Part shown: piece after piece, positions 12,491-55,846 of the stretch
Numbering within the stretch: the first letter of the stretch is position 1
Layout of the letters: every line of letters begins with the position of its first letter
NCBI GenBank assembly: GCA_951406725.2
Contig: OX597824.1
Span: 44,888,001-44,952,000, forward strand
Source: Octopus vulgaris
Taxonomy: Eukaryota
Length of the DNA: 64,000 bases
Reading direction: 5' to 3'
Program-made: the position numbers and the translations under genes
Notes under the pieces: model-generated
Seen by the model: only the letters and a program-made list of their open reading frames with translations
The model's database searches: none
What the model was told of the DNA's origin: nothing

Positions 12491-12607
12491 ATCTTCATAG
12501 ACAGAAGTAGAACAAAAAGTAAAGGATATGAAAGGCAAGTTGACAATCTTTGTGTGCAGGAGAAAATTTGAATGGACTATTCTCCCTGAATTCACTAGAT
12601 GAAGATT

Positions 12608-12830
12608 TTATGCTACAGAAACATTTCTAATCACTAGGTTTGAGCCTTCAATTTCCACAACTTCATATACCCACTTCCGATTACATCGACACTCAGTGCC
12701 ACACTTTTCAGAACCACATTTGTTACATGGAAAATGGCATCCTGGACAGTCCTCATCCAAACAATCACAAACATCTTTACTGTTGTCAAGAAGTCGACCA
12801 GTTTCATCATACATTTGGTTGGTTTCTATG
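12608..12830 (-). CDS. ARL14EP: Duplicated copy of the ARL14EP terminal exon (alternative last exon or orphan/pseudo-exon)
   Basis: Near-identical to 35063-35285, with an intact tatcag| acceptor and the same phase. Visible differences are two synonymous changes and ATGAAA>ATAGAA. Confidence 0.7.
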
Positions 12831-13259
12831 CTGATATTGAAAATGAAGAAATAAAAAAAAATTACAGAGATCTACATGCATAGCAAGTGACCTGATCTGA
12901 GATCGTGTGCTGGAACGAAAACAATTGCAGGAAGGAAAGTGTTTATAAGCCATTTAAGAAACACACAAAATCTGTTAGATTCACTTCAACATTTATATTT
13001 GATTTGTCAAAATATTTGCGTTGCTTTGAGACCGCAATCTGTTCACTGACAAAATTCCGTGCTTCCTCCCTGCAATAAAAAAAAATATGTCAAATCAATT
13101 TGAATAGCTTTCAAGAAAAATATTTAATATTTTACAGAAATATACTTTGGTAATTGAAACTTGAGATGAATAAAATTACAATATATTGAAATATATTTGT
13201 TATATTGCACTCTCTCTCTTTATATATATATATATATATATGTATTTAAATATATGTAA

Positions 13260-13299
<40 letters not shown>

Positions 13300-13319
13300 T
13301 TATGTATATGCATAAATAG

Positions 13320-21729: not shown

Positions 21730-21779
21730 GAATTGTCTGCGCGTTGCTTTCTTGAATCATCTGATTCTAACTACTAAGG

Positions 21780-22154
21780 ATGCCACCCACTACAGCAGCA
21801 GCGTCAAAAGGAGCAAAGAAAGCCGCTAAGGCTAAACCTGCGCGTTCTGGGGATAAGAAAAAAAAGAGGAAGAGAAAGGAAAGTTATTCTATCTACATCT
21901 ACAAAGTGTTGAAACAAGTTCACCCCGACACTGGTATCTCCAGTAAAGCTATGTCTATCATGAACAGTTTCGTCAACGATCTGTTCGAAAGAATAGCTTC
22001 TGAATCTAGCCGCTTGGCTCATTACAACAAACGGTCGACCATCAGTAGCCGTGAAGTACAGACTGCTGTCCGTCTTCTCCTTCCAGGTGAATTAGCCAAA
22101 CACGCCGTCTCTGAAGGTACCAAGGCTGTTACCAAATACACAAGCAGCAAGTAG
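21780..22154 (+). CDS. H2B: Replication-dependent histone H2B
   Basis: Intact intronless 124-aa ORF ([28 protein letters not shown]...[12 protein letters not shown]) with a TATA box upstream and a stem-loop downstream. Confidence 0.98.
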
Positions 22155-33258: not shown

Positions 33259-35062
33259 TCTAACTTTCCCATCATTTACATTAGATAGCTGAGAAATTTT
33301 GGGGTCATCTAAGCCTTACTAGCTTTAGATTAGGCTGTGAGAATACTTTATCATCTACAAATATATGACTTTATACCTAAGTAATTATTAACAATCCTAG
33401 CTATTGTCTTCCTACTCACACCATGATTTTTAGCAAGCTTGGTTAAGCTGGTGATGGCTTTACTTTAAATCAACCAAAAGGAATGGTGTTGGTATATTTG
33501 TGATTGCAACAGGTATCATCAAATGAATGCAGAACATCTCATGTAGTCTTAGCTAAGCTAGAGTATGTTAAACTGTTACTTTTACAGAATCTGTTATTGG
33601 TAATAATGAATGTGAGCTACAACAGGTGCAGCTCATTTCACCAAAAGTATTTTGTTGCAGTGATTCTACAATTCTAGCACAATCATCACAATCTGTCATG
33701 TAAAGCATTAAATTAATATCTTAGACTTGATATATACTAAGGTACTTATTCAGATATAACATTTTGAAAACTGTCTCAATTTAGCTACCCAAATTCTATA
33801 AGTAGCATCAGTATAATCAAATTAATGAGTGTTCCATTGGCTATGCAGTGTTGAGCTAAAATATTTCCATGAATAGAGCTATTTGTCATAGCTCAGAATT
33901 TTATCTAATAGTGTTATTTATATTTCTCATCTGCTTCATATTCTAGCAATTTGATTTAAACGCTAGCCCATTTGAACTGAGGGATCCAGAAAATATTTGC
34001 TTTAGTAGCATTATGTCACATATTACTGGTTCTTTTTCTATTAACTCCAGCCTCCCAGTAAACTGAATCATTTTATAGTTTGATGTTATAAATTTAACGC
34101 TCTACCAATTCAGTCAACTAGTTTGAAGATAAATGACAAAACAAAGGGATTTAGTGTTACATTTGAAAGCATTTACAATACTATATATCAGACAATATTA
34201 TTCCATTAAATATCTTATCTTGTGATTTGTGGGGTTCTGAACTTTGCAAAGATGAACAATTGTCACACATACCATAACAATGCACTTCAAAATTTGATAA
34301 AATGAAAATAAATTAATAAAATGTAAAATTGAGTGGCACTGATCGAAATATGACTGAGGTAGTGGTGCTATCATTGCATTGTAAAAAAAAAAAAAAAAAA
34401 AAGGTAAAACGTTCTCATTTTACCAACTGTTATGAAGAGGAAGGTATGGTAGCAAACAAACCACAGTAACAATATCAAACAATCCAACTCACTGAATTTA
34501 AAGTTGTGATTATAATAATGTAAACTAATACGCTGTTTAGAAACTTTCTGGTAAGTTAATATCTTGCTACAATTGAATAAGCTGTTTCTTCTGCATGTAT
34601 GGCAGGGTCATAAAATAGTTACCATAGTTACTTGTAATTTACTAGGAACAAGGGACAATAAAACTGCATACCTGACATCTTGAATTTGTCCCATACTAAC
34701 TTAATTAATCAGTTGGTTCTTTTATTGCCATGAATCTTCTCTATCACACATAGCTGTAGCTAACTAACAGCAACAACAACAATGACAATACTGGCAAGTA
34801 TAACAACATAAGTCCATATTGTAATGTGAAATGAAATGAAGTTCAGGGCGGATGTTGATTGATGTTAGTTGATCAATGGTCATTGGTTTGCAATGAAATG
34901 GAAAAAAAAATGTAATGAGTTTTCATTATATATGGCAGATTATGTGATATGTAAAGCAGAAGTAGAACAAAAAGTAAAGGATATGAAAGGCAAGTTGACA
35001 ATCTTTGTGTGCAGGAGAAAATTTGAATGGACTATTCTCCCTGAATTCACTAGATGAAGATT

Positions 35063-35285
35063 TTATGCTACAGAAACATTTCTAATCACTAGGTTTGAGC
35101 CTTCAATTTCCACAACTTCATATACCCACTTCCGATTACATCGACACTCAGTGCCACACTTTTCAGAACCACATTTGTTACATGGAAAATGGCATCCTGG
35201 ACAGTCCTCATCCAAACAATCACAAACATCTTTGCTGTTGTCAAGAAGTCGACCAGTTTCGTCATACATTTGGTTGGTTTTCATG
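35063..35285 (-). CDS. ARL14EP: ARL14EP-like gene, terminal exon (ARF7EP_C cysteine-rich domain)
   Basis: Acceptor atatcag|C. MYDETGRLLDNSKDVCDCLDEDCPGCHFPCNKCGSEKCGTECRCNRKWVYEVVEIEG matches the ARL14EP C-terminal CDCLDEDC-GC-CxxCGS-KCG-ECRC-RKW-YE signature. Candidate AATAAA on the minus strand at 34721-34726. Confidence 0.92.
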
Positions 35286-35499
35286 CTGATATTAAAAATG
35301 AAGAAATAAAGAAAATATTATTTCAAATCATATTTGAATAGCTTTCAAGAAATATATTTTTACAGAAATATACTTTGGTAATTGAAACTTGAAATAAATA
35401 AAATTACAATATATTCAAACATATTTGTTGTATTGCACTCTCTCTTTATATATATATGTATATAAATATACGTGTGTGCATTTAGTATATGCATAAATA

Positions 35500-36991
35500 C
35501 AGGGTGCAATGGGTAAATTGTCGCCATTTTATATTTTTAATTCCGTGCACTGCTTGTTTTTGATTTTGTCAACTACACAGTATGGTAGGGCCAGTTGGGC
35601 ACAGTCTGTGAGAAAAACAACACCATGATGCAATTCACTCTGCCAGGAATTTGGAAACGACATGCTGTACTGCTTGGCATTCACGCTGGAAGTTCCAGTA
35701 CGAACAGATGTACCAAGAGTGATAAAAATCAAACATACAATCAACATCATGGGGGTTGAAGTGATCGCTAGTGATGGCGACATTATAATAAAATAATAAT
35801 AATAATAATAATGAAATTATTGTATACAGTGCTCAGGTGCACCACAACTTGTCAGAAAGTGCATATAAAGTACATGCAGTAATGTAGAAATGTCTGGAAA
35901 GCGAACAATGTATGAGTCAGATACATGCTTGTGTGTGTATGGAGGGGAGAAAATCAAGTGTAGTGTTGGCGAATCTCAGGAAGCATGGAAGTTTTGAAGG
36001 ATGCAGTGCTCCGACAACTAACAACTGATGCCGGCAGTTTGTTCCATGCTTTAGCAACTCTCAGTGTGAAAAAATGTTTCCTGAAGTCATGGGAGCTGTG
36101 CTGTTTTCTTACTTTGTAAATATGTCCACGGGTGTTAGATAGGTGGAGTTTGAAAAGGTGCTCAGAGTTATTGTTTGTACGATGGTTGATAATTTTATGG
36201 GTGTCTGCCAAGTCAGCTGCCAGATGTCGGAGTTTCAATGTGTCCATGCCCAGGGAAGTAAGGCATTCAGGATATGGCAAATGACTGATGGAGGGTATTC
36301 TTTTGGTTGCACATCGCTGAACAGCTTCCAGATGACTGATATCCTGGGCAAGATAGGGGTTGCAGACCGGTGATGCAAATTCCAGGTGAGGTCTTACCAT
36401 AGCTTTATAAAGCCGCAGATAGATAGCCCGAGAGCGGCTCACAAAGGATTTGGTGAGTGATGCCTTCATTCATCTTCCCACACAGCCTCAGACTCAATAT
36501 GGAGGCCTACATAAAGTGCCTGGAGGAGGTGGTGCTGCCCTGGGTCAAGAGGGTGGCTGCTGGAAGACCCTATGTCTGGCAACAGGACTCTGCACTATGC
36601 CATACAAACAGAAGAACCCAGTCATGGCTGTCAGATAATTTCTGCAATCACACCACCCTTAACATCTGGCCACCTAACTCCCTTGATTATTATGTGTGGG
36701 GCACAGTTGAGTGAGAAACCAAGAAAACTCCTTGTAACACCAAAGACGAACTGAAGGCAAGGATTATGGCAGTATTCACCAACTTAAACAAGGAGACTGT
36801 CCAAAACAGTTGCATAAGATTCCGAAATCGTCTGGAGGCTGTGGTTGAAGTCAATAGTGATTTTATTGAATAAATTTACTTTATAGTATTTCAAGATATT
36901 TTTATGTAATTTTGGTAAATATATGTTAAAATGAGATGTCAGTGTTATTTTCATTTTAGCGTAATTTAGACAATATATTCACTGTACCCTG
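35500..36991 (+). mobile_element. DD37D mariner with TIRs and TA duplication, interrupted by CR1
   Basis: TA|CAGGGTGCAATGGGTAAATTGTC ... GACAATATATTCACTGTACCCTG|TA, with the same transposase remnant as 13320-14082. Confidence 0.88.
35785..36452 (-). mobile_element. CR1-type LINE 3' fragment
   Basis: LYKAMVRPHLEFASPV.NP..LEAVQR.ATK..NTRGH.YK...RKHFFT.RV..AWNKLP, with an (ATT)n tail at 35785-35812. Absent from the 13 kb copy of the mariner. Confidence 0.85.
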
Positions 36992-37239
36992 TATGTGTGT
37001 GTGTATAGGCAAAAATTATTGTTTCAAGAGTACACAGTAGACAAGGTGTATAACTGAAAGGTTATACGTAATATCCTATTACTCTGTATCATATTGTTTG
37101 TAACCTAATCTTGGGTTTCTTTAACCGAAATTTAGTGTATATTTGATTTCAGAAGGTAAAAATATCAGATAAACTATTTATCAATTATCTATTTATATCT
37201 CAAATGTTTAAAAAAACAACGTACCTATTATATAGAATA

Positions 37240-40200
37240 CTATCACTATGACCCGGCGTTGCCGAGTTTAGTGCTAGTGCATCTCAAGAACGACGGGCTT
37301 GTGTTTGTTCTGCGGTTTCGTCTGCCCTTGCGCTGGCCATGGCAGCGGCATCTCAAGAACGACGGGCTTGTGTTTGTTCTGCGGTTTCGGCTGCCCTTGC
37401 GCTGGCCGTGGCAGCGGCATCTCGAGAACGGCAGGCCTATGTTTGTTCTGCGGTTTCGACTGCCCTTGTTTTGTCTGTGGCAGTGGCATTCCAAGCTAAT
37501 CGAGTAGCTCTGTCTAGGGGTGCCTCATTGGCCCTTCTGGCCCTCTTAGCTTCTGAATCAGCCGTCTTTCTTCCAATGCGAGCTCTCTTCTTTGGGGGCA
37601 TTTTGGCAATTTATTGAAATTAGTGAACTTTAAATGGATTTAGTTTTTGTGGACTAAGTGAGATAGCTTGGGGCAACCGATAAGCACACGATTTTAAGTA
37701 ATGGCAAAGCAATAATCAAAACGATAATGGCAGAAGCGGTACCCAAATGGAAAACAAAGGGCTATTTAAAAACAGTAAAGAAATCGTAGACAGGTTTCAA
37801 GAACAAAAACTGTTTACTGTGCTTGTAGGTTGGTGAAAACATTGGCTGCTCAAAAGAAGCAATAATCAAAAAGTGGGATCAAACACGAAAACGTCTATTT
37901 TTATTCAAAAAAATGATGCCGAACTATGGCAAATTCCCTAATTAACACTTTGGTTAATCAAAAGAAGCAATAATCAAAACGTGAACTGATATCAAGCAAA
38001 AAAAGGTTATTTTTATGCAAAAAAATTGGGGTCAAACTGCAGCAGATGCTTTAATTAAGTGTTAATTGATGAGTTGCTAGGCAAAAATATGGCCTGGCAG
38101 ACCCAAGTAAAAGTGATAGGTAAAGTGGAATTTTATGAACAAAGCTTGTGATCAGTAACGGAAACTGAGTCATGAAGCATAATTGTGAAAAGTGTTTGAG
38201 TCTGGGCACCAAAGCATGCATCCTCATGCTTAATTAGCACATTGAATCTTATTGGATAATGATCTAGTACACACAAATCCAAGGCTGCGCATCTAAGGTC
38301 AAACGTTTACATATGTCCCTCAGCAGCATTGGCCAGTACACGCACATGTTCAAGGTCATACGCAGTGCCATGCTCATGCACATGATGACTAAGTGTCTAT
38401 GTGGGAAAACGCTCTTTGTGGTGTTTGATACACGGGTTAATTAATTAGTGGAAAGTGGATTCAAGTTAGAAAAACATAGGGCATTTGTGAAGTGTAAAAC
38501 CCAATCAATTTGCAGTAGCAAACAAAAAGCTTATTATGTGGAAGTTAAGGCTAAAAGAAAACATTGTAATTCAATTTGAATGGGGAAGCCTGTAAGGGAT
38601 TGTTATGGGCCAACTCTAATCAAATTAAGATTTCACACACCATAAGTAATAACCTGAGTACCCTTGTCACATGCTATGTAGATAGCGAATGATTTGACCT
38701 CAGGCTGAATGCGAACTCAACAAACGATGGTTATGTGTATTTTCAAAATCATGCTGTGGTGCAGTCAAATTCGAGTTTTTTGCTTTCTTCTTCCTCTTTT
38801 TTTGACCGATTATGACATGTGCACAGTTCCGCTAACTGAAAGCTTCATATCATGTGCTTGTTCGTTTCTGGTGTTTCAATAAAAAGTTCTTACTTAATCA
38901 AGGTAGTGCAGAAACACTGTATGACTCGTGAGTTCTAGCCTTGAATTGTCTTAGGTACTGGTGTGCTTCTGTTTGGTTAGGCTTTTTACAGATAAAGATT
39001 ACTTCATTTTGAGCTAAATCCCTTTCTTTGTTTTCGGAAATTATGCTTGCCTTTCCATCGCATATGTTTTTTAATGCGTTTGACTGAGCCCATTCAGAGG
39101 TGCAGCTGCACTGGGTAATTAATCATTGCAAATTTAGTGGCTTTGTTGAAGGTGATGGGGGAGCATGTTAGAAAATTGATAAAGACCACCACCATGAAAG
39201 CAAACCTTCACCAATAAAATGAAATGAATAAACAGGGCTGACAAAGTTATCCAATTTCCTAGCAAGCGGAAAAATGTGACTGGAAATTAATTAGCATCTC
39301 AATTTTCACTCGTATCTCAAAACACAAAAGCATGAAATTTCGCTTAAGAAAATCTTTGTATCTTAGGTCATTCGTACCTCAAGTTAGGGCTAAAAGAAAA
39401 GGTTGCAGTCAATTTAAATGCGGAAATCCTCAAGGAATAGTTTTATTGAGTTTCCACTGATTGATTGGCAATTTTGGTAAACTTGAATCAAATTAAGATT
39501 TTTTGCACCAAAAAGATCACCTTGATAACCCTATGTCCCTGCTGTGTAGGTAGCAAATGACTCGATCTTAGGCTGAATGCAAATAAAAATAAATGTTTTT
39601 TATGAATATCCCTTGGTGGGGGTCAACTTACCCATTTTTCATTTTTAATCCTACTTGAATAAAACATCCTGGGCTCTTGCTGGATAACTTAAATCAACCG
39701 AAAGCATAAAAGTAAAGCCCTTGCTAAATAGATTCACTGAATAGGCTCCAACTCTTTTATGGCATACTTAAGGAATGATAGCATATCAAGCATATTTGGT
39801 CTTTCGTGAAAATCCCGCTCTCTTGTCATTCACTTGGTCTAACTCGTTAATTATTCCCTGCATTTCTCAAATCAAAAAAGCATGCACGTTTGAAAGCCAA
39901 AACACATGATAACACGTCTTCGCAAAACACAAAAATGCACTGAGTCATACAGACTGTCTGCAAATGTGCACGCACATTCAACTGTCAAGGGTAAAATTAT
40001 CTCTGTCCAATCAAAAAACAGCTGGCAGTCTATTGGCGTATCTAGCTGTACACATGCACTGTGTACAAATATCTATGTTTTAGCAATTTTATATGGATAT
40101 GCCCATAACTTATGGGCATAAGGGGTCGGTTTATCAATTTTTTTAATGGCTTTCTGGGGTGACTGGGGAAATGAAAAGATCTTCACGACCAACCTCAGAC

Positions 40201-40296
40201 AGTTTTGAAAGCCCATAGAAAATGCGAGCTTTTTACATGAAAAACTGTGGATTTGTATAAAGGACACAGACATTTTGCTGTTTATAGATATAGAGA
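37240..40296 (-). mobile_element. Non-autonomous Helitron
   Basis: 5' end A|TCTCTATATCTATAAA at 40296. 3' hairpin ACTCGGC-AAC-GCCGGGT followed by ...GATAG|T at 37240. Carries a RepHel N-terminus remnant (MPPKKR..., three 69-bp repeats). Confidence 0.75.
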
Positions 40297-41913
40297 TATA
40301 AACTTATTTCATAGATTAAATTTTAAAATAATTCTCTAAAGTAAAATATTATAGCTGGTTCTGTTCCACATTTGTATAAACATAAATGTTATACACACAG
40401 ACACTTGAACCTGTAACTGTTTCAAGTGCATATATTAATTTAGTTTCTGCCTGGCCAGCTTTTGCACAAATCAGTAAATGTTTTGCTTATAAATTTCTAT
40501 ATTAGAACAAGCATTTTTGGTTTGGCTCAGAACATCTGTAGTATTTGTTACTGAGGAGATCAAATCAGGTTGAAACAGTGAATCTGGTGATCCACTAGCA
40601 TTCTGAAGAAAGCCTTATATTTTTAACACATAAATCTCTAAGCAGTTTCACTGAAACAAAATAATACAGCTAGTGCTGATTCACTTTTGTATATACATTA
40701 TATTATACACACAATATTAACCTTATCTTTAGATATGAAAGCAATTTTAATATTCACATCTTCATCATATTTCAAATGGCTTGTTTCAAATTCAGTCTGG
40801 TACTAATTTGCACTCCCAGGATGACAAGCAGTCACTCTGAATGAAACATCACGTAAGTAAAAAATAAAAAAAATTTCATCTCTAAATACAAGGTTAATAT
40901 CTTCTATCTTTTACTTGTTTCAATCATTCTACTGTGGTCATGTGGAGGCTCTACTTTGAATGAGTCAACTCCAATACTTTGTTTTTAAAACCTGGAACTT
41001 TTATTCTAATCTCATTTGCAGAACTACTAAGCTATAAGGACTGAAACAAATCAACACTGGTTGTCAAATGGTGGCATGGGGGACACACATGACAAGCTTC
41101 TTTTATTTCTGTCTATCAAATTCACTTACCCAAGGTGTCATGCAGTGGGACTGAACCCAGAACTATGTGGTGCAAAAGCAAACTTCTTACCACATAAAAA
41201 AATTGAAACCTACTAACAATAATTTATTTCAGATATTTATACACTTAATATTTAATATTGAGATTTTATATGTATTTGGACAATACACTTTTCAGTTTTC
41301 ATCTCCCTGGGTACCAGATAATCTACATTAACATCCTACTTGGTAAGAGTCTTAGCCCTCAAGAGTCCTAAAACGAGAGGTATGTCTCTCAACTCTTCAA
41401 TGTTATAAAAGCTACGATAAGTCCCACCATACAGCAGCATTTTCTGGTAATGAATATGGATAGAAAGATGTTATTTGTATCAAAGAATGTTTTGTTTTCT
41501 CTATTTTTAAAATATGCTGCCAGACCATAAAAAAAAAAATAAAGACAAAGAAATGCTAACAGAAGTTTGTGTGATGTTAAAAAAACTAAAAGGTTCCTTC
41601 TTAAATTCCCACCAAGTTAGTGACACAACAAAGATATTTCCTAAAACTCAAACTGAACAAAAACTGTTTAGCCCTTTTAATATCAACCCACATAAGACTA
41701 TGTGCCTCCAAGTGCTCATATTTAAATTAAAATCTTAAAACAAGAATGATAAATTGAGATTTTCATTGGTCAACTTCAACACAACATAATACCAATATAT
41801 AAAGTTATAGTCAATCTATTCTTCAGAAATAAAGTCACAAAAGCAAATTTGATTAATGGCCACAATATTGAGAAATAAAATACATTCAAGAATGAAAAAT
41901 ACAGAAAACGTAC

Positions 41914-42035
41914 TTCTCTCGATAAATTCTTCGGTTCATTTTACGCATTTCTCTGCTACTTTTTTCTGGATCAAAATCTTCCATAAATTTCACAGAATTG
42001 ATAGGAGAAAGCATTTTCAAATGCTTGCCAACATC
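41914..42035 (-). CDS. ARL14EP: ARL14EP-like gene, internal coding exon
   Basis: Acceptor ctcttttaaatag|GAT and donor AA|GTACGT. The 122 nt encode DVGKHLKMLSPINSVKFMEDFDPEKSSREMRKMNRRIYRE plus 2 nt, resembling the F-x-P-E-x-x-x-R-E-x-R segment that precedes ARF7EP_C. Phase 2 joins the 35285 exon in frame (AA+C = Asn). Confidence 0.85.
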
Positions 42036-42079
42036 CTATTTAAAAGAGTACAACATAACAATAATTTCTAGTATGTATG

Positions 42080-42113
<34 letters not shown>

Positions 42114-44017
42114 ATTTTGATGTAAAAAAAAAACAGTCATGGCAGTGTGGATAAGAAGCTCGTTCAGCCCCACTGTATGGCACCTTGGGCACACAGTGGC
42201 AAACAACCAAGCACTTTAGAGTTTATAGCATGCTCTATTGAAATAAACAAAATCCTATGCTACCTTAACTATAAAAGATAGCAAAAAATGCAACATGTTT
42301 TACATAGGCTGCAACATTTACACATTTCTTATATTCATTAGAGCTCAGAAACATGACAGACTTGTCTAAAAGGCATTCTATCAACACAGATTAACCACTG
42401 ATTAACAGTCACCATCATCTTGACTATTTATTAATAGTTTATTGTATTAATATTGCTATCTACTCATCTTTGTGCATCTTTGACATGTGTAGTATTGTAA
42501 ACACTTTAGCTCTCAATGCAAAATTTCTAGTTAGTGATTAGGGTTTTTTTTTAAAAGAAAAAATAAGCTGGAATATTAAATTTGCGGTAAAGAAGTTTGT
42601 TTCTTAACCATGTGATTCACATGGCACCTTCGGTAAGTGTTTTCTACTATAATGCAGAGCTTACCAAAATTTTGTGAATAGATCCAGCAGACAGTGTGTG
42701 TGTGTAGGAGTGCTAGTGTCTCCTTGTCTAGACATTGCACAATAGTTGTCAACAAGCAACACTATCATACAAACTTGTTTGTTTCCAATCTTTCGCATAA
42801 CATGTCTAACCATAGAGAAAATATCTTATTTGGGAACAAGTGAAAGTTGGTGACAAGGAGGGCATCCAGTGGTAGGAAATTTACTTCAACAAATTCTATC
42901 TGATCCATCCAAACATGGAAAAGTGGGCATTAAAATGATGATGATGATAATGAAATATTGAACAGATCATTTTTCTCTAACTTGGCATTGTTAGGCTACT
43001 TTGATTACCTTCCTATTTTTATACTGTTTAATGATTTAAATAAACTACAAGATCTTATGCCACTACAACTATAATAGATAAAATATTTATTCCACATTAA
43101 GTTAACTGCTAGATCTTTATGTGTTTGCGATAAAAGATCAGCACTATTGTTGTACAGAGTGAAAGGATTGTAGTTGTGATGTTTGTGCCTTTTCTGATAA
43201 GTATTAGTAGAATAGGTGCAATACCTAAGACAAGAGTCAAAGCTGACTTGCATAATATAGTTTGCCAGGAGCTTACTACCCGCATGGCAATTCTTGACAG
43301 TTATAATCATTATTATCACCAATAATAATAATAATTATATATTATAGTATATTATTCCAGTATGTACAGGAGATAACTCTAGACATGTTTTGGTCTTATA
43401 CCTGCTCAGCAAAGCATAAACTTGTCAAAGCAGTGATCATTAACTTAACTACATTTTAATACTGATGGTGTTCCTGAATAAAAGTGCTAATTTTCTCTCA
43501 AAGTGTTGGCATAGCTGTATGGTTTAGAAATTAGCTTCGCAACCATATGGTTTCGGGTTCAGTCCCACAGTGCAGCACCTTGGATAAATGTTTTGTACCC
43601 AGACAAACCAAAGTCTTGAGTAAATTTGGTAGACAGAAACTGAAAGAAGCCCATTATGTGTGTGTGTGTGTGTATGTTTATATTTGTGCTTTATGAAAGA
43701 CGCTTGCTACAAGCAGTGTTGCTGCTGTTACTTCTACTGACAACAAATTTCCCACTCAATTCACACCTTCAAAGATGTGTGAAATAAGAGATCCTTTACT
43801 TGAAAAACAAGCAAAGGTTAACACAGAAATAGCATACAACTGTTGGATGCTGAATATGCCTAACACATGCTAGCATGGAAAAGGGATGTAAAAACAAATG
43901 AACACAAGTATAATATTGTACATCTATTTAGTAATTGTCTTATCACTACTTTAACAAGTATAGAGAAATTTACATTTTACTGATGAGGTTTAGAAAGCCT
44001 GAAATAAAGCTCACACT

Positions 44018-44444
44018 AACTTAGCTATTATTCTTCTGCCGATGGTATCTTAATAATTCATTCCCTAAAATAGCTGTTTTATGGTATTTAGTGTTAAGTT
44101 CAAATTCAGTCCAAGTCAAAAGACTCATATTCATAAAATATGAACAAATCATTATTTACTGGAGTTGACATTGTACCTACATAGAAGAGTGGTAAGTAGA
44201 TATGGGAAAGCATTGAACCTTGCAGTAACTACCTTACTGCAAGGTTCAATGCTTTCCCATATCTACTTACCACTCTTCTATGTAGGTACAATGTCAACTC
44301 CAGTAAATAATGATTTGTTCATATTTTATGAATATGAGTCTTTTGACTTGGACTGAATTTGAACTTAACACTAAATACCATAAAACAGCTATTTTAGGGA
44401 ATGAATTATTAAGATACCATCGGCAGAAGAATAATAGCTAAGTT
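44018..44444. repeat. Perfect palindrome, 211-bp arms, 5-nt spacer
   Basis: 44018-44228 is the reverse complement of 44234-44444; the spacer is CTACC. Confidence 0.95.
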
Positions 44445-45639
44445 CCTTCGAGTTCAAATCCTGCTTGGGTTAACTGCACCTATCAATCCCTCTACAAGAA
44501 AATACTCCATATAGTAACTATTACATCCACTATGGCTACAGTAAGGATGACTGAAGAAGGAAAGCTAGGGACACAGGCAGTATTTAGATAGAGCTGCATA
44601 GAGAGAATTATAGTAGCATTAGTACTAAAAACAGAGAGAGGACATTGATTAATATTGTTTAATCTAAATTGTTCGTTTATTTTTATCATTCGTTTTTACA
44701 TCCATTTGTCTATGCATGCATGGGTTAGATGAATTTGTTTTTGAGGCACTGCTTTATAGTCAAATGTCCTTCCTGTTGCTGACCCTTACCTGTTTTTCAA
44801 GCAAGGGTCCTTTTATTCCACATGGCTTCAAAAGAGTAAAGCAAGCAAATGATGTGTTGACAAGAGAACTGACAACATTGCACATATGTAACAACTTTCA
44901 TAGAAGTGAGCAAAATGTAAACAAACATGCACACATTTTATAGATGTGTATATATGACAGTTTTCTTTCAGTTTCTGTCTACCAAATACACTCATAAGGC
45001 TTTGGGGGCTTTGGCCAACCAGGAGCTATAGTAGAAGACACCCAGAGTGCTACAGAGTGGGACTGAATCCCTAAACCAGGTTGGGAAGAGAATTTCTTAC
45101 CCATACAGTCACACCTTCCTCTGTACAGAACTAATTTATTAATTTTTACTTTTTGAACTTGGAAGCATGGTCTGGTAATATTCATTCTTCATGTTGAAAA
45201 TTTAGCTTGACACACAGTTAAAATGGTGCAGCTTTAAAATTTTTCAGATAAGGTACAGTTGCTGAAGTGCAGTAGTTACATTTGGTTAAGCGAGTCTGCA
45301 ATATAATAAAAAAATGTCTCATTTCATTTACAATGTTAGTATCCTTGGGAAATGTATAAATGCCAAAACAAAATGGCATCACAGTCAGTTTTAGAAAGTA
45401 GAATGGTTACTGCTATCATGCGAAGTCATAATCCACTTTTGAACTCCTAACTCTCCTGATTTTATTTTTCATCTTGCTTATCCCTCAAAACTTTGTATAA
45501 GAAAGCAATGAACATGACAATTTCATGATATTAAGACATGTCTAGGAAGGGATATGTCTTGTCTGAAAACACCACTACCATCCAATTTCAGTTTGTTTTA
45601 TCACAATATCTTATTAGTGTTAGGTTTCATTTTGAATAA

Positions 45640-48600
45640 TAATAATACTTTCTTTATTGGCCACCAGGGCCAAACACAAAACATAAAAGATGATACACAG
45701 ATGAGGGACAGTGGCGTTAAACGTGTAAACAGCAAAAAAAAAAAAAATTAACAAGGAGATTAAACCAACAATGTACTTCCCCAATAGGGGGGAGTTCCAC
45801 CGAGAGGTGAGCTCACACACTTTCGACACCCTAACACCAAAGGCCCCTAAGGTAGGCACACCTCTCTTCCTCATTCCATCCGGTCTACAGGCGCACACTT
45901 AGAGTAGGCCCATTCACATGGGCCATTCTTGCCACATTCATCCACCTTTCAACAAACTGACTGGGTGACAGCACCTCTCTCTCCAGCCTCACTTTCCTTT
46001 TCAGGTAGAACCTGAAAAAGTCAATGAGGCTTTTGCCATAGCCACCAAACAGAGAAAAACTGCTTGTCCTTCCCAGCCAAAGGAAGGAGGCAGGATGATC
46101 TTCACAATGGACTTGGACGATAGCCGGATCCATCCTACACGTGACAATAACTGTTCAACAAAGCTCCACAAGGCAGCAATGTGTGGACACTGTATGAGAG
46201 CATGCAGAACAGTTTCATTACTCTGCATGCATCTCAGACAAGCCCGTCTGACTGCATACCTATGCCTGTAAAGCTTATTGCGAACTGGCAGAGCCCTCTG
46301 GTATCACTTCCAAGCCAGGGATTTCTGAAAGTTATCCATAGGCCCCAGCCCAAAAGTCCTCCGGAAGAGGCCAGCCAGTTGATCCCTCCCGATGTTCAGA
46401 ACCTCTCTGAGAACATCATCACTCTTGTCCTCCACAGAACTCCAAGATAGAACTTCCACCGACCACACTGCCTGACTGGACAAGGGCCGTGAGCACTTGG
46501 AGACACTCTAGGTGCCAAGTGCCCTGCCTTGGTCTATGCCTGATCCAGGACTGTAGACATGTCAAGGAGATGAGCTAAGGAAAAGCACTTTCAACAAACA
46601 GTAGCCATACTTGCTCACTGTTAAGGTATTACCAGAGATGTTGCAGCCTCAGTGCATGTCAACCATGCATGCCCAGTCCTCCACGCAATGAGTGCTGATA
46701 GCAAATGGACTGTCTGACAAGTGGTACCTGTCCCTTCCACAGGAAGCGCACCAGCCTGTTCAGCCATGAAGTCAGGCAGTAGTACATGATGGATGCGATG
46801 TATGCATTCACCACCTCCACCTGACCTTTCAAGGACAGCTTCCTCTCGGCCCATTTCTGGGTGAGACTGGCCATCCTGTTTGTCACCTTACCCCAGTTCT
46901 TGTCCACTTGGAGGTCCGGACTGAACCAGACCCTGAGGAACTTAACCAGTCCTTCCATCCAGCACCCAACAAAGCTGTTGGTTGGCAAGGATCTGCCTCT
47001 CCAGGGGCCAAGCTGCAGACCGACTGACTTCTGTTTAATCATTGCTTCTGTCACCACTTTGTATTCCCTTAGGGTAGTGCCAACCATCTCAATTTCCGAG
47101 ACATCCAACACTATCACAGTGACTTCGTCTGCATATGCAGACACAAATCTTTCGCATCTTAGTTCACTTGGGATGCCCCTCAAAACATCCAGCTTCCATA
47201 GAAATGGCTTGAATATCAGTACATAGAGAAAAGATGAGAGTGGGCATCCTTGACGGACTGAACATGCGATGCTAAACGATTCCAACAGGTGGCTATTTAC
47301 TTTGACCAACGAACAGATGTCACTGTACATTGCAGTGATCCAACCTCTGAAAACAGGACTGAAACCAGCCACCTTAAGGACAGCCTCCAAATACTGATGG
47401 TCAATCCTATTGAAAGCTTTCGATTGATCCAAATTGATTAGGGCCCCACCTATGCCAGGTTCTTTACCAACACCTCTCTATGATGTATCGCGTGAGGTAG
47501 AGATTGTCGTCGATAGATCGGTTGAGGATAGTGCAAGTCTGTTCATCACCCACCAGTCTGTCAATGACAAGCGCCAACCTCTTTGCTAACACATTGGCCA
47601 AAATTTTGTAATCTGCATTTAGCAGAGTTACAGGCCTACAGTTATCAACAATGTGCCCCTTGTTCAGATCCTTTCTCAGTAGTACCACCACATCATGGCT
47701 CACAGATCTGGGGATTTTCCCGTTCTGCTGCCAGTTGCAGAAAACACTGCAAGAGCTCACCAAACAAGTCTGACATATGAATATAAAGCTTGAAGGGCAG
47801 ACCATCTAATCCTGGAGATTGCCCCTTCGTGCAACTAGCCAACGTGTCACATATATCTTCAGCTGTTATCAGCATTTTGCAGAACTCCACATCACTGGCT
47901 GAAAGCCGCAGCATACCATCAAGGTTGGCGCAAAGAGGTTGGCGCTTGTCATTGACAGACTGGTGGGTGATGAACAGACTTGCACTATCCTCAACCGATC
48001 TATCGACGACAATCTCTACCTCACGCGATACATCATAGAGAGGTGTTGGTAAAGAACCTGGCATAGGTGGGGCCCTAATCAATTCACCACCATGTGCCCT
48101 GAACAGTTCAGCAAAGTGCTGCTGAAATTCCGCACAAATCTGCATCACTGTTTTTTGCTGTTCTTGTTGCATTTGTGGTGTGAGTTTCCTTTCAGGGTTT
48201 TGGTGTTTGTGGTGCTTTAGTTGATGACTGTGGTGCTGCAGGAGTTGTCTAAGTGTCTGCATTTGTTGTGGGTGTATGTGTAGTTTCTTTGTTATCTTGT
48301 TTTGGTGTAGGACAAGATGTCTCGCCTCTGTGACTTCTTTTCAGTTTTTTGGATTTACTCTGTTTCCCCTCATCATCACTTTTTAATGTGGTTGAACCAA
48401 TGTCTGCTGCAACCTCCTCCTCTCTGTGTGGAAGTGAATTTGTGTTTGTATGTGTATCTTTTCCTGCATCCTTGTTTGTGAGAGGTGGGGTTGTTGAGCT
48501 TGGTTGCAAGGAGTTAGTTTTCGTGGTTGACCTCTCCAACAGTTTTCCTGCTGGTGTTGTTGTTACGCCTCCCACTGCTGCCACCATTGTTGCTATTTTT

Positions 48601-49590
48601 GCTGCTTTCCCTGTTGTTGGTGGTGATCTCTCTACAGCTGGTGCTGTTTTTTGTTTTCCAAGCCCTGGTATTGGTGTCAACGGATGTCTACAGGCACTTG
48701 TACCTTTTCGCTGAGGACAGTGCGCTTGTAGGTGTATTGCTTCACCACAAGCAAAGCAATGAGGCAGACATGGTCTGGGATGTTCTCCAAGTCTTGTGGT
48801 TTTTATCCAGGACTTCTAAGAGGAGAGTGTTGCTGCCCTCTGCGATCGTGCATCCCACAAACCGCCATATGTTGATATCTGGTGTTATTCCGTGGACTCA
48901 AACTTTCATTGTTCTTTTGCCTATGTACGATTGGTACATTATAAGCTGGTCACTTTTACAGGCTCCCACCGAATGCTTCATGGCCAGATCTTCTGTTTTA
49001 AAAAGGACCAAGATGGTACCAAAACTTCAGTCTCTTTGAATGCATTCGACATCCTCTCTGATTGATCTCTGCCATCTCTGCCGAGATACACCTATACTTT
49101 ACTGTCCTCTTCTCAATTTCTACCTCCACTTTGGCTGGGATTGCAAGGTTTGCCTAGGTTTTTTCTCTTTTTATGAGTTTGCGGGCCAGGGCTAACATCG
49201 CTTTTGTTGTCATTTTGCAGATGCTGCTGCAAATCTACTTGTTCTGCTCTCCCTGTTGATGGTGGTAGTGGAATTGTTCACATTGTTACTACTATTGTTA
49301 CTTCCAAATACACCTGCCTCTCTGTTGCTGGTGTTGACATTGGTATTGGCTGTGTTCTCATCAATATTTTTGTTGTCGCTATTCATTCTGTTAAGCTTCT
49401 CTGTTCCATGTTGTTGGAGTTGTTATTTTCTGTGTTGATATCAGTTATCATAGTATTTTCCACATTATTTCTGTTTGAGGAGTAGGCAGTTACAATTTTG
49501 TTCTCTATTCGACTATTGAGTGATTGTATGTTCCCCATTGTGTTGCTTTTCTCTGTTGTAATACTTCTCTGTTCTTTTACAGTTGCATGT
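45640..49590 (-). mobile_element. Tx1/L1-like LINE with ORF1 remnant and RT
   Basis: ORF1 CCHC knuckle CFACGEAIHLQAHCP (about 48705-48765). RT motifs PGLDGLP, RPVTLLNADYKILA, DQSKAF, RQGCPLS, YAD. Endonuclease region deleted. Confidence 0.87.
47432..48084. repeat. 155-bp inverted duplication inside the Tx1 element
   Basis: 47930-48084 is the reverse complement of 47432-47586. Confidence 0.9.
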
Positions 49591-49594
49591 ACAT

Positions 49595-50102
49595 TGTTTT
49601 GTCTTGGTATAAAAGATGGGCTACAGCAAATATTCTGCTCAATACCACAGATTTACTTGTCAGTTGTTTGACCATAACCAGTTGACCATGTCTCTTAGTG
49701 GCTGACGATATGTGCATCTCTGACTACAAGCAGGAGTAGTTGGGGAGCATCATAGCTGTGTGTTGAAAGGAATTCTTGGAGGTTTGGATAATTCACCTTT
49801 GGAAACATGGGTGGTTCGTTCAACATCCTTAAACAATCCTTATTCAGGGACCTTTTGAGCGGGATGGGCTACTCGACCAGAAGAAAATTCTAACTGGGCC
49901 CCACCTGCAAGGTCATGCGTTGTTTATCTTGATATGAGATCACCATATCGTGCACGTTTGGTTGTGATGAATGTGCCTGGTGTACCCTTATCAAACGGGT
50001 AGTCATGATGGGTATACTGGGCTTCGTATATTTTACCCCAGTGTCACTTTGATGGCATGCACTGCTCTCTCACTCAATAACAACAACAACAACAACAATA
50101 AT
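49595..50102 (+). mobile_element. 3' UTR of a non-LTR retroelement ending in (AAC/AAT)n (possibly R4/Dong type)
   Basis: Non-coding GC-richer block ending CTCTCTCACTC-AATAACAACAACAAC. The clade assignment is from recall only. Confidence 0.4.
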
Positions 50103-53100
50103 GTTCAAAGATCCATTTTAACACTTCTGTGTTACCTTCTGGATGAGAACTTCTGTACTGGCAGTTGGTATTACAATTTTTTTGTCATGTTTAGGAGACC
50201 CATGGAAATACTCTTTATGTGTCTGACTAGCCACCTTCAAGCTTTTAAATTTTTGACCAGTAGCATTAAGTTATAATTGTGTATTATATAAGTGTTAAGT
50301 TTTGAGTTACATACTGCTATTAAGATATTGATTCTATAACTAACTTCTATTCCTTTTTGTTATGTTTTGTTTTCTTTTTTTGTACTGGTAGTAGGGATAT
50401 TTTAAATAAGATGCTTTTTCATATAGTGTTTTACTATCACAATTAGATTTATAAATGTTTGTTTCTTAAACTATTTTTCTCATCTTGGATGTATTGCTGA
50501 CAGAATGTATCAGTTGGTATTCTCTTGAGTTGTTTTTCAGAGATTGAACCTACAGCCTTTATTGCTGTATTGACTAACTTGTCTTTTGTTCTGGAAGACT
50601 AGCCATTTATAGTTTATTAACAGGTTTGCTGTTTGTTATTGATGGGAGATTTCTAATGTTCCAGCTTTTGATATTACTTTATGATTAAGTGTAATGCATA
50701 TTGTATCCTGTTCAACATAACAAGCTTTTCAATGATGTATTCAGCTATTCAATTGCTTAGCTGCTATTTATTTACTTTGTGTGATTCTTTTTTGTTTTTA
50801 ATAGATGTTGCGTCTGTTGTTAAAATTTGTTTGCCTGTTATTCCTGTACCAAATTATTAAAATGTCTATTTCAGACATTAATGATCCATTTAATCCTATT
50901 AATTGCTTTGTGCAATATGACTTTTAGGTAAGGACCCAGGTGAAATGACTGCTCCATTCTTAATCATAAATGTAGGAACAATAAATTGATATCAGTATAC
51001 ATTTTTTAACCACTAAAAATTCCTATACATGCATACAAGTAGTAAGTGGTCAAACAAGTACAATTATAAAAAAAAAAAGCAGCAATAAAAACTAAAACAA
51101 GTTTGTTTTGAATAGCACATATCTAAATGAGAAGCTGTTCCTAATACACACATATGCAATATTTGCTTTTAAAGTTAGAGTACTGAAATTAATGGGGTGA
51201 ATGCAGTATAGTAAAATTATTCATCTTAAAGATGTATCAAATAATCCTGATTAAAACATTTAAGAAAACTCCAGGATAAATTATTTGATAAAAAGATTTT
51301 ACTTAAAAACTGAAAATTATATATTTTCCCTAAACTTATTAACTCGCTTTAATTTAAATCAATTTCTTTTTTAATCTACATTATCTTTACAAACTACAGC
51401 CTGTCATTTAGTGCATGCTAGCCACATATCCATTATATTAACACCACATATAAGAGAGAAATTACTTGTTTAATATCTATTGTTTCTAGCCTTCACAGAT
51501 GTTATCACTCTAATAAGTTCCCACTACATCAAACAATCATATTTTCACAGTTATCACCTAATTGCTATTTTGTGTTAACATCACCAAAAAACAACAACCA
51601 TATCCACTATCAACACTTCACTATTTACAAACACCATTCACCATAGCCATCTTCATTGATGCTCATCCTCCTCTGCCATCAATATGAGCACCCACAACAA
51701 CAAATAACTCTTTAAAGGGTTTTTTTCTCCCTTTCAACAGTAATTTATTTTTTCTTTGAAGTTTCCATTGAAAATCATTTCCTATATGCACAATACCTTG
51801 CATCTCAAAAAAGGCATGCATTTACATCCATAATTCAACTGGTTGCTCCTATTCAAAAACTTAGCTGTTGCAGGTGTTGTTTAGACTCAAATCAATTTTG
51901 ATTAAGCAGGCCTATGGTCAATAGCATTCTAGTCATGGCCACCCACTCTTTTTAGTGGTGTGTAGGGCAAGATTATTTAATGTCTCCTTTCCTTATTTAA
52001 GATAACAGAGTGTGGTGATTTGAGGACGATTTGCCTACTATGTCAAATAACCAAACAGTGACACTCTCATTAGCTTATATTGCAGATGTTTCTATAAAAG
52101 TTAAGAATTTGGGAGTGGCAGAAGGAAATTTAGATTAAAAAATAAAGCAAGTGGATACAACAGGATGGCATAATTCACTGCTATAAACAACAATATTGTA
52201 ATGAGCCAAAAAGGTTATTCAATCTGTTACAAATAATTATATTGGAAACATCTAGTTTTAGGAATACAAAGACAATGGATGGTCATCGTTGGAATAACTT
52301 TGATCATAGGCCTGTTGAATCAAAACTGATCTAGAGCTAAGTAACAATATTATTATAAACAGACAAGTGTTTTCATTTATTGGCTTGCAGAGATTAGATT
52401 ATGTCCATGAGAAAACACACATGCTGAGCAGACTGAAAACTGGAGTTATACATTCCCTCTAGCAAACTTCAGAGGTACATGAAAATAATGATAATTATGT
52501 TTTGGTCACATAAACAGAAAGCAACAAATTTAGAGTAAAAACTAATTGATTACATCAACCCCAATATCACCATCATCAACATTTAACAGGCGTTTTCCTT
52601 GCCGGCATGGTTAGGACGGCTTGATAGGAACTAGCAAGGACAGGGGCTGCACCAGGTTTCATAGTTTGTTTTGGCTTGATTTCTACAGCTAGATGCCCTT
52701 CCTAATGTCAACCACTTTACAGAGTGTACAGGGTATTTTTTACGTAGCACAATCACCAGTATTTTTACATGGCATCAGCACTTACTTTATGATTAACATA
52801 AGGAAAATCTAATAGCAACAAAACAATTTCTTTAAACAAATTTTTTGATAATTTTAACCTCAAAGTTATGAGTTTTCCTACTGTAATATCCAGGTAATGA
52901 CATGCTGCTCTACATCAAAAAATGAATTGCTAAACCTATCCTAATAGTATCCACATCACATATCAAACCAGAATGGCTCCATCAAAAACAGATGTGGAGT
53001 AAAATGGGAGTCAAAACCCATGACAATGTTAAGTGCTAAACACTCTAAACCAGTAATTGTGTTAAACTGGGTGGTGTGTTAGACCAACCTTCCTTTCTCT

Positions 53101-54772
53101 GACATCACATTGTGAACAACATCAAGTGACTTCCACAACAAGCACTATCTGATGTCATGGAGTTTTCATGTAAAAATAGAAATGTAGTTTCAAGTTCTCT
53201 TTCAATTTTTTTGTAAACAAAACACTATTTTGTCAGCCGGATACAAATTTGACACATCTACCTGGGTACTAAGAGCAAAGAGCTGGGACATACACAACAA
53301 AGCATTTTTCCCTTTGTTCTAACAATTCTATCAACCCATTGTCAAAGACTTGTGTTATATTTCATTGACCTTTATCACAGACAGAATTAATTCATTAAAA
53401 AGCTGTCTGAAGAACTGAAGACAAGAGTGAGAATGCATTAAAAGATGCATCTTTTAATGTGTCTCACTCTTCAGTCATCTCAAGTTGTACTCAATATTCT
53501 TAGATATGTCCTCCTACTTTATCACTACTACTCTTTGTTGTGTAATGCCTCATACCATCAACTTTTGCAAAACCATCCAACATATGTGTATGGAAAAATG
53601 AATATGGATTATTAAGAATAGGAAAATAAAAATGGAGGTTAAAAAAAAGTTCTTTCCTATGTTCATTTGAATTTAAAGGACACATCACTGAAGGTGTCAA
53701 GATATGGTTGAGAGATCATCATGAACAGTGAACATATGTTGAGAGTGTGTTACTAAAATATATACAGTAGTTTTATTTGTTTCCTATTTACTGTACTCTC
53801 TATATATATTCTACTGCCAGTTAAACAGATGGTACATATGATAGCTAAATATATAGAGATTTGATTACTGATTTATTATTACTACATAGTTAAAATGAAT
53901 GGAAAAATCTTTTTATTTTAACATGTCTAGAAATAGAGAATGAAAGAAGTTTTAGAACTATATGTGAATATAACTGATGTTAATTACTTGATATTTTGGT
54001 TTGTATAAACATGGGCAGAAAAAAATATCTAACAGTTGTCTTGTGCTTACTGAAATGATTAAAATAGTATCAGTAATGGAGCTAATGTTGTCTTTTCCTT
54101 CTCACCACAGGTAAAATATTTCTCATTAGACTTTTGATGCTTACTGCAGTAAGTTAGTGTCAACACATTAACACCAACATCAAACTATTGCTTTCTGACA
54201 TCTCTGAGTTTAAAAAAATCTTTTCACGTCTGTTTAGTGGTTCTCAACCCTATTGTGGAAAATATGGCAAAAATTAGGCTTTGCGGAGGAGGTGTAATAG
54301 AGCGAAACCTGTCTAGATTTGTCTCCCCTACTTGAGCTAACACCTTTGCTTCCATGCTTAAGTATTTCTTAATTCAATTTATTTTTTAGCTTATTAGATT
54401 TAAATATGTTAACGATAACTTAATTATCATTTAGAAAGATATTTAGTTCAATGTGTTAACAAGATGTGTATTTACATGTAACTGGCAAAAGTGGCTGATG
54501 AAAATGTCTGATCTCAGCTCAATGATAACTTCTCTGGCTTTTCTCGTTCTTTCTCTACTCCTATGTAGCAGCAAACATTTTGTCTTAAATTTAAGTACAT
54601 GCATATAAAGAATTCTAATAAAGATGATTTTTTTAAAATTGTCACGACAAAGCAATCTTACAGCCATCGAGATATGGAAGAAAAGAATAAATAAAACGGA
54701 GCAGATGAATGAATTTTAAATAAGTGGTTCTTCTGAAGTATATGGAAAACAATCTAGAAAGATGATACTTAC

Positions 54773-55189
54773 AGTCTCGGAGAAATTCCGCCTTAAAAAT
54801 CTTGTGTACCAATTCGTTGTTCCAGCAAAATCCAAGATCTTTTTCATTTTGGCAATAAGCCGGCCCTTTTCAATGATCATTTCACGAGTCAGCTCGTTGA
54901 GTTTACCATCGGCATGAATACCATTTATCCACCCAGTTAATTCTCTGTCCATTTCTTGCACTTTTGTAAGCTGGCGACCGGTTTTTTTCGGAGGGGTTAC
55001 TTTAACACTCGCGATCGAACTGTCTGAGGACACACTCAAAGTGTTCTCTTCTGTCTGGCACTGCTTGTCAATATCATTACTATTGGAGTAATCAGATTTC
55101 GGGGAAACTGGAACACTATCATCATTCGAACTTTTGGATGTGTTATTGGTCTTATCCATCGTTGTTGTTTGTTCTTCGTCTTCAAGCAT
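54773..55189 (-). CDS. ARL14EP-like gene, first coding exon: Ser/Asp/Thr-rich N-terminus plus CENP-B/Tc5-type HTH
   Basis: ORF from ATG 55189, with an in-frame TAA upstream at 55238-55240. EMDRELTGWI...LTREMIIEKGRLIAKMKKILDFAGTTNWYTRFLRRN aligns by eye to the second CENP-B HTH (LEGLLIAWF...LKEKALRIAEELGMDDFTASNGWLDRFRRRH). Ends at a canonical donor ACT|GTAAGT, phase 0, 417 nt. Linkage to the downstream exons is inferred from phase compatibility. Confidence 0.7.
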
Positions 55190-55846
55190 TTCAGAAACTG
55201 AGTGTCTTCGGCTTATAGTTACTTTGTCTGTCCCATTTTACAGGTAGTTTTCTTCTTTGCAAGCTTTTCGCAATCTAACAGAGGAGGCCAAAAGCCTATT
55301 TAAAAGTGATATTAGCAGCGATTCCATTGTTAATAGAAGAATGACTGAAAAATCAAAGAATGGAAAACGTTCCGAGGCTAATTCCTTTGTTTTATCAACA
55401 CTACTTGGTTACAAGTTCAATTTTTCAGTTCGATCTCATTTTAGTCAGTCGCTTTATTTGTTGTCTCTAAGTGTTCATTCATTGCTTCTGAGCTACTCTT
55501 TGCAAGTCGATGGCTCCTCTCTTGTTCTGGCGTTTAAATACACGCGAGTAAGACAGTAGGAGCATTATAATTCTTTCGATTGTGATTTACTCAGAATCTT
55601 CTATTTTCGTTTAATATTTATTAAAAAAAAAAAATACACACACACAGGGGAGAAAAAAAGACTACAAGTATCAACGATTGTTATGGTTGGTTTGCATTAA
55701 ATGAATGAATTAATGTATGAATCCGAAACAATTTTCTAGACCAGTGAGTAGACATAAATTTGTCAGTAGTAAACATTTGGCAAAATTGTAAGTTCCACTC
55801 ATTTTGTTTTGATCGCTCAGAATGCATGCTGCTAAGCGAGACTTTG

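Follow-up and report, generated by a model that had tools for sequence, protein, structure and literature searches.

An octopod gene joins a helix-turn-helix of likely Passer-type pogo origin to the ARF7EP_C domain of ARL14EP

The window analysed here, a stretch of 64,000 nucleotides from Octopus vulgaris (contig OX597824.1, positions 44,888,001 to 44,952,000), carries on its minus strand a gene that joins a helix-turn-helix (HTH) of the Tc5/CENP-B type to ARF7EP_C, the host domain of ARL14EP. This HTH-ARF7EP_C gene is real, under selection and lineage-restricted. Its three exons have GT-AG ends, with donors GTAAGT (exon 1) and GTACGT and acceptors TAG and CAG, and are joined in phases 0 and then 2 into an open reading frame (ORF) of 253 residues without a stop. 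The transposase-derived HTH and the host ARF7EP_C lie on separate exons. The spliced product is letter for letter that of P0001, the NCBI 'ARL14 effector protein(-like)' of O. vulgaris and O. sinensis; the O. bimaculoides counterpart, labelled 'HTH CENPB-type domain-containing protein' in UniRef, shows five differences, all within the N-terminal linker. The exon structure, splice sites, phases and ORF of about 253 residues put forward in the original prediction were confirmed and are identical to the NCBI models. The same was true of its claim that the HTH exon is joined to ARF7EP_C without a DDE domain, for which the Pfam scan of the protein returned no hit. Features beyond that prediction comprise a second fused paralog, an intronless third copy, an orphan copy of exon 3 and THAP-ARF7EP_C forms in other invertebrates. 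The elements of the gene, in window coordinates, are listed below.

54773..55189, minus strand: coding exon 1 (residues 1–139), 417 nt, with the ATG, a Ser/Thr/Asp low-complexity linker, a basic linker and a single Tc5/CENP-B-type HTH, ending in the phase-0 donor GTAAGT
54773..54988, minus strand: Tc5 HTH plus basic linker (residues 68–139), Passer-type pogo-related
42036..54772, minus strand: intron 1, 12.7 kb, repeat-rich, containing a LINE (long interspersed nuclear element) remnant; no remnant of the donor element's DDE or terminal inverted repeats (TIRs) found
41914..42035, minus strand: coding exon 2 (residues 140–180), 122 nt, N-terminal part of ARF7EP_C, with the FxNPG motif altered
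35286..41913, minus strand: intron 2, 6.6 kb, with repeats
35063..35285, minus strand: coding exon 3 (residues 180–253 plus stop), 223 nt, cysteine-rich domain (CRD) matching chain A of 8HFP
12502..12864, minus strand: orphan copy of exon 3 including its acceptor AG and 3' flank, 98% nucleotide identity, 22.5 kb downstream

An upstream ORF of 29 codons was also noted on the minus strand (55238-55327), in frame with the gene and with its TAA 48 bases before the ATG.

The host part was identified without difficulty: ARF7EP_C (PF14949) spans residues 143–240 (E 5e-34; 117.4 bits against a cut-off of 27), and exon 3 matches PDB 8hfp_A with E 8e-23. The CRD cysteines are all kept, and human G218 and R236 have their counterparts in G210 and R228, the numbering being anchored on the Myotis protein P0083 and on the CRD limits 209-237 of PMC6739341. 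Equivalents of both residues are present in all three octopus genes. [quoted passage not shown] For human C11orf46, deletion of the CRD weakens and R236H abolishes SETDB1 binding, H3 is bound independently of the CRD, and the dCas9-tethered protein represses a promoter via SETDB1 (PMC6739341); this tethered protein is an engineered version of what the octopus fusion would do. Octopus SETDB1 (L050-L053) was located by Pfam Tudor_4, while Pfam MBD, Tudor_5 and Pre-SET searches missed it. It lies on C7 at ~443-477 kb and comprises Tudor, MBD, Pre-SET-like and split SET exons; the MBD is divided over two exons, with 8hfp_C as the best match of the MBD exon (E 1e-6). In line with the association of ARL14EP with SETDB1 named in the original prediction, octopus keeps the G218/R236 equivalents and has a SETDB1 gene. 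The complex between octopus CRD and MBD was predicted with zinc included and without use of our own alignment. It scored 0.44 against 0.01 for the best control, with contacts agreeing in at least 90% between runs and a partner pLDDT (predicted local distance difference test) of at least 75. In calibration, 51 of 78 solved pairs passed the mark applied, as did 2 of 108 mismatched pairs, but passes at values up to 0.60 came from just 5 of the 78 solved pairs and from each of the 4 mismatches that passed. As a like complex has already been solved, the pass may be memory. The prediction lends weak support to binding of the SETDB1 MBD by the octopus CRD.

The nature of the HTH was assessed from several sides. 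A profile of the two paralog HTHs aligned with a profile of 14 octopus pogo HTHs in hhalign at 97.4% (E 1e-11, 57 columns). The homology covers all three helices, and W20 and W60 are invariant in 18 aligned rows; the pogo HTH alignments A3 and A4 exclude locus L031, which has a stop codon. The ESM Atlas returned Tc5 at 0.95, with 23 of 30 hits being Tc5, and a library search over 1.84 billion representatives gave 10 hits, namely two own relatives and eight Tc5 proteins, with BrkDBD in five of the latter and DDE in none. The combination of BrkDBD and Tc5 is the mark of the Passer family (PMC7386202). The octopus genome contains at least 149 Tc5 matches, and among the 30 loci fetched the best relatives of the HTH were L036, L042, L037 and L041, which are Passer-type. 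L037, L041 and L042 are elements of ~2 kb, 94-96% identical, that encode Tc5 and DDE_1, show an HTH-like stretch upstream and have terminal repeats flanked by TA; the 27-nt terminal sequence of this family had 53 exact genomic matches, compared with 0 for the reversed control. At E 0.001, Pfam named BrkDBD in the related L021 and not in L042. The terminal repeat of this young family was observed to contain an internal repeated unit. In a tree of 34 HTHs, the four fused ones fall within a Passer-like clade (98/97), beside the L042-type elements (93/94, unstarred).

When the alignment included pogo HTHs (pLDDT 86), the top match of the HTH structure model was CENP-B on DNA, 1HLV (prob 0.99, TM 0.72, rmsd 0.9 over 57 columns, E 1.1), a match that is partly circular. 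The model built from the two paralog HTHs only (pLDDT 81) returned just generic helical bundles in Foldseek and VIA, and the two-sequence HTH profile found no PDB relative. Lysine and arginine account for 15 of the 72 HTH/linker residues, which is compatible with the putative DNA binding of the HTH. As for the rest of a transposase, the protein gave no Pfam hit at E 1 for the first HTH (BrkDBD/CENP-B_N). No convincing DDE remnant was found by tblastn within 84 kb around the window gene or 40 kb around its paralog on C22, and neither a nucleotide match to the L042 element nor a terminal repeat was found around either gene, although very old remnants could escape such a search. These comparisons make Passer-type ancestry of the HTH likely; it may have been captured directly from a transposase or from an older domesticated gene. 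Separately, P0120-P0124 and P0126 were seen to contain three to eight repeated pogo DNA-binding units without DDE, which suggests multi-HTH domesticated factors.

The CRD exon matches four places in the octopus genome and the HTH two. The C22 paralog (P0005/P0128, 317 aa) bears the same fusion, with the same introns and phases as the window gene; its exon 1 ends at 27285945, exon 2 spans 27279861-27279740, and both introns measure 6.1 kb. Its FxNPG motif, also present in bivalves, is retained. The third gene (L004, G000:C2:57464k) is an intronless copy of 259 aa that contains the CRD and lacks the HTH and the exon-2 motif; it has a basic low-complexity N-terminus, is conserved in three Octopus species and is likely a retrocopy. 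The orphan exon 3 within the window, at 12826-12608, has three changes in 216 coding bases and was noted to belong to a local duplication (12502-14084 vs 34957-36939) that carries exon 3, the intact acceptor and flanking repeat pieces. A second exon 2 was not found in the 84 kb around the window gene, and the orphan is possibly an alternative last exon or a dead duplicate. Argonauta shares the fusion, and both intron-containing ARL14EP genes found in octopus carry the HTH. The CRD tree places the window copy with Argonauta P0003 (100/100) and unites the intronless copy with the four HTH forms (89/95). From these groupings, the fusion likely preceded the duplication, and the duplication the split of Octopus and Argonauta.

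The window and C22 paralogs are saturated at synonymous sites (proportion of synonymous differences, pS, 0.83-1.06), and selection was consequently judged from the proportions of nonsynonymous (pN) and synonymous differences and not from dN/dS. The pN values were 0.20 for the HTH, 0.14 for exon 2 and 0.05 for exon 3. Over 65 HTH positions, identity with the window gene was 65 in O. bimaculoides, 65 in P0002 and 59 in Argonauta, compared with 62, 58 and 24, respectively, over 67 linker positions (Fisher p for HTH vs linker 0.06, 0.003 and 2e-11). The HTH is under strong purifying selection, and exon 1, for which the original prediction had named neutral evolution as the outcome that would overturn it, is not neutrally evolving, given an HTH pN of 0.20 against saturated pS and an HTH better conserved than the linker.

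Transcript evidence came from contigs of the sequencing runs X1, X9, X15 and X17, whose RNA origin is presumed and not recorded. The contigs of X1 and X9, from two studies, match exon 1 without differences and end at 54772, which is the donor plus one G, this G also being the first base of exon 2. They continue for 558 and 436 letters, respectively, past 54772, where exons 2 and 3 require 345. In the large run X15, one contig reads through the intron (52700-55199). A contig of X17 was seen to start exactly at donor 54773 without the shared G and may mark a branch to another acceptor. The presumed-RNA contigs give a weak hint of splicing at the window locus. For the 54773|42035 junction, which was to be checked against RNA, the exon-1 contigs do end at the donor, and the joint itself was not directly seen. 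For a relative, the fused 297-aa ORF P0004 was present on 117 Logan contigs, each of at most 2028 nt, and the P0004 cluster members P0071, P0072 and P0075 read into the intron exactly at the HTH end; the short contigs and this read-through together indicate that the relative's fusion is spliced. The presence of both domains in one transcript is thus supported by the relative's short Logan contigs and by the NCBI models.

The distribution of ARF7EP_C architectures was sampled by two word-seeded searches, the second of which scored only 7999 candidates of at least 297 aa; the counts are no census. The 110 distinct ARF7EP_C clusters found include four with the HTH, three of these assigned to octopods. 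Rescoring of 145 stored proteins gave 131 with the CRD and 10 that match the pogo profile, all from the same four clusters. The architecture proved lineage-restricted, with four of 110 clusters and none named outside octopods, where the original prediction had left open that it might be common across invertebrates. Its statement that the vertebrate ARL14EP N-terminus is different and Cys/His-rich held for Myotis P0083. Examined for a possible transposon origin of its own, the vertebrate-type N-terminus matched (0.91 in the Atlas) only clusters without a name, and a copy of it was not found in a search of the octopus genome. Another DNA-binding-type domain, THAP, was above cut-off in 6 of the 110 clusters (P0008, P0010, P0029, P0080, P0094 and P0105), from Crassostrea virginica, Mizuhopecten, Apostichopus, Ischnura, Lepeophtheirus and one JGI record. 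In oyster and scallop, the annotation lists both THAP-bearing and THAP-less isoforms, and in close relatives it shows no THAP. The longer alignments give 22-34% identity among the THAPs, and the attached CRDs interleave with THAP-less CRDs. These forms hint at repeated capture by alternative splicing, as has been described for tetrapods (bioRxiv 2020.05.07.082677). Gene-model errors may account for some of them, an Apostichopus model having no THAP, and host THAP genes are possible donors instead of transposons.

Further ARF7EP_C proteins with N-terminal modules were noted. Those of decapod crustaceans (P0084, P0097, P0099 and P0100) have a C4-finger-like domain. The group of P0006, P0018-P0021, P0079 and P0095 includes a Cys cluster without a name, in Lingula and clams, and modules that by eye resemble the vertebrate Cys/His domain, in a hemichordate and ticks. 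An insert in P0014 was not named by the Pfam scan.

A decayed element in intron 2 (37250-39040), which we take to be Helitron-like, includes a 69-bp tandem repeat whose minus strand encodes charged repeats; contigs from three runs on this segment represent a ~92% identical copy. LINE reverse-transcriptase remnants and a long terminal repeat (LTR)-type RNase H fragment occur at 9305-11550, 16512-17396, 46659-48340 and 7510-7878; the segments 47432-47586 and 47930-48084 form a perfect inverted pair of 155 bp. The plus strand holds a histone H2B ORF that is intact (21771-22154), and the minus strand a degenerate histone-fold (H3-like) fragment (14694-15044).

Host-transposase fusions are a known kind of gene, and what is new here is the host partner and the lineage. 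The tetrapod KRAB-transposase fusions, including KRABINER, and SETMAR (bioRxiv 2020.05.07.082677) likewise splice a transposase DNA-binding exon to a chromatin-regulatory host domain and are kept by selection. The octopus gene differs in being from an invertebrate, in having its transposase part N-terminal and reduced to one HTH, and in a host domain that is the SETDB1-MBD-binding CRD instead of KRAB or SET, so that SETDB1 would be reached without KAP1. POGK and POGZ (PMC7386202) likely stem from the same donor family, Passer, and fuse a Tc5 HTH to host domains (KRAB, zinc fingers), but retain the DDE domain, which the octopus gene lacks. CENP-B (1HLV) shares the HTH family, while the octopus gene has one HTH and neither a DDE-like nor a BTB domain. 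With ARL14EP/C11orf46/ARLE-14 (PF14949, 8HFP), it has in common ARF7EP_C, the CRD cysteines and the G218/R236 equivalents; in place of the vertebrate Cys/His domain it bears the Tc5 HTH, the window copy has an altered FxNPG, and the octopus genome contains, besides the two fused paralogs, an intronless copy with the CRD alone. Domestication of pogo as CENPB-type factors in Octopus was reported by Mukherjee and Moroz (PMC10027918), and the five supplementary files of that paper contain neither the gene's two accessions from O. bimaculoides nor two of its short motifs. 'ARL14EP' does not occur in the main text of bioRxiv 2020.05.07.082677, nor ARF7EP or ARL14 in that of PMC12062965, which screened for domains found together with transposable-element domains. 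No paper on an HTH-ARF7EP_C fusion was found in the literature, as judged mostly from listings and outside subscription journals.

We favour, with slightly more confidence than doubt, the reading that the spliced octopus ARL14EP with its captured Passer-type HTH acts as a DNA anchor holding SETDB1 on fixed host sites; a captured domain of DNA-binding type and a SETDB1-binding part in one protein would be likely to do so. A pogo element would have inserted upstream of exon 2 in an ancestral cephalopod, and phase-0 splicing from a donor directly behind the second pogo HTH to the ARF7EP_C exons would have left out the first HTH, the DDE domain and the TIRs, before the fused gene was duplicated ahead of the Octopus/Argonauta split. 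The CRD would bind the non-canonical SETDB1 MBD, as in human, and the basic linker and HTH a short DNA motif, which would increase SETDB1 residence and histone H3 lysine 9 (H3K9) methylation there. The bound sites may descend from ancient pogo ends and need not be current elements. Several points weigh against this reading. A single HTH may give little specificity; CENP-B uses two. The HTH_Tnp_Tc5 (PF03221) hit of the window copy, at residues 79-135 (E 0.002, 18.6 bits), lies under the Pfam cut-off of 22.2, as does that of the C22 paralog (20.5). Part of the two-domain HMMER result expected in the original prediction was obtained, ARF7EP_C being clearly above its cut-off and the HTH passing in the relative P0004 (25.7). 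The fused-HTH branch is long, at 2.5 changes per column, with a sister grouping (93/94) that is not starred, and the closest library hits are mostly multi-HTH, DDE-less proteins, on which account the donor could be an already domesticated gene. The MBD entered the complex prediction as two exon pieces, the FxNPG motif retained in the C22 paralog is lost in the window copy, and worm ARLE-14 stabilises MET-2 on chromatin and is not required for its placement (PMC6105299, PMC8850192).

This worm protein, acting without site choice, is also a precedent for an HTH that serves as a non-specific DNA or nucleosome clamp, or as a protein-contact module, raising SETDB1 residence in place of the vertebrate histone-binding N-terminus. 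The CRD-independent H3 binding of human C11orf46, the highly varied or short N-termini of ARL14EP proteins and the presence of a single HTH point the same way. We nonetheless regard it as unlikely, the recognition helix and basic linker being as conserved as exon 2, which is more than a generic clamp should need. The original prediction had instead proposed that the HTH still recognises pogo/Passer terminal repeats and silences them as KRAB zinc-finger proteins do. A young Passer-type family with copies 94-96% alike and 53 exact ends is indeed present, the recognition-helix region of L037/L041/L042 resembles that of the captured HTH, KRAB-transposase fusions repress sequence-specifically (bioRxiv 2020.05.07.082677), and some Passer transposases and POGZ were seen with only a Tc5 HTH (PMC7386202). 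However, the HTH is just ~25-29% identical to that family, on a long branch, and is nearly invariant among octopods, with no arms-race signature; the first HTH is missing, and there are two HTH genes and not an expanding family. With an HTH so single, static and far from current elements, policing of pogo ends is less likely than a fixed host role, and this proposal, somewhat disfavoured by the second-HTH-only, two-member family, now appears quite unlikely. Pfam found neither a KRAB domain nor a C2H2 array in the protein; a KRAB search of the genome gave no match and, lacking a positive control, was uninformative. A role outside the SETDB1 pathway, such as the published cytoplasmic ARL14-myosin function of vertebrate ARL14EP (mentioned in PMC6105299), or as a decoy for the C22 paralog, in keeping with the changed FxNPG of the window copy, is very unlikely: the CRD cysteines and G218/R236 equivalents are all kept, a DNA-binding-type domain suggests the nucleus, and MBD binding is, if weakly, predicted. 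Finally, the unseen 54773|42035 joint in the contig tables and the presumed RNA label of the runs would suit an artefact, in which a stray transposon fragment was joined on paper to an ordinary ARL14EP. That view is largely refuted and hardly credible in light of the identical NCBI models, the shared junction of a paralog saturated at synonymous sites, the fused ORF on the relative's short contigs and the purifying selection.

Beyond the anchor reading for octopods, ARF7EP_C may be an invertebrate counterpart of KRAB, a broader idea that we offer tentatively and consider doubtful as yet. It would be a small SETDB1-recruiting module that repeatedly captured transposase DNA-binding domains by splicing (the pogo HTH, fixed in octopods; in oyster, scallop, sea cucumber, damselfly and copepod a THAP, in part still as an alternative isoform), and H3K9 methylation would thereby be directed by sequence and independent of KAP1. 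By what means animals that lack KRAB-KAP1 direct SETDB1 to DNA is an open question, for which the fusion provides a testable candidate of two domains. The scattered THAP-ARF7EP_C forms suggest that such a solution was reached several times over; transposase capture, known from tetrapod KRAB genes, would then extend to invertebrates.

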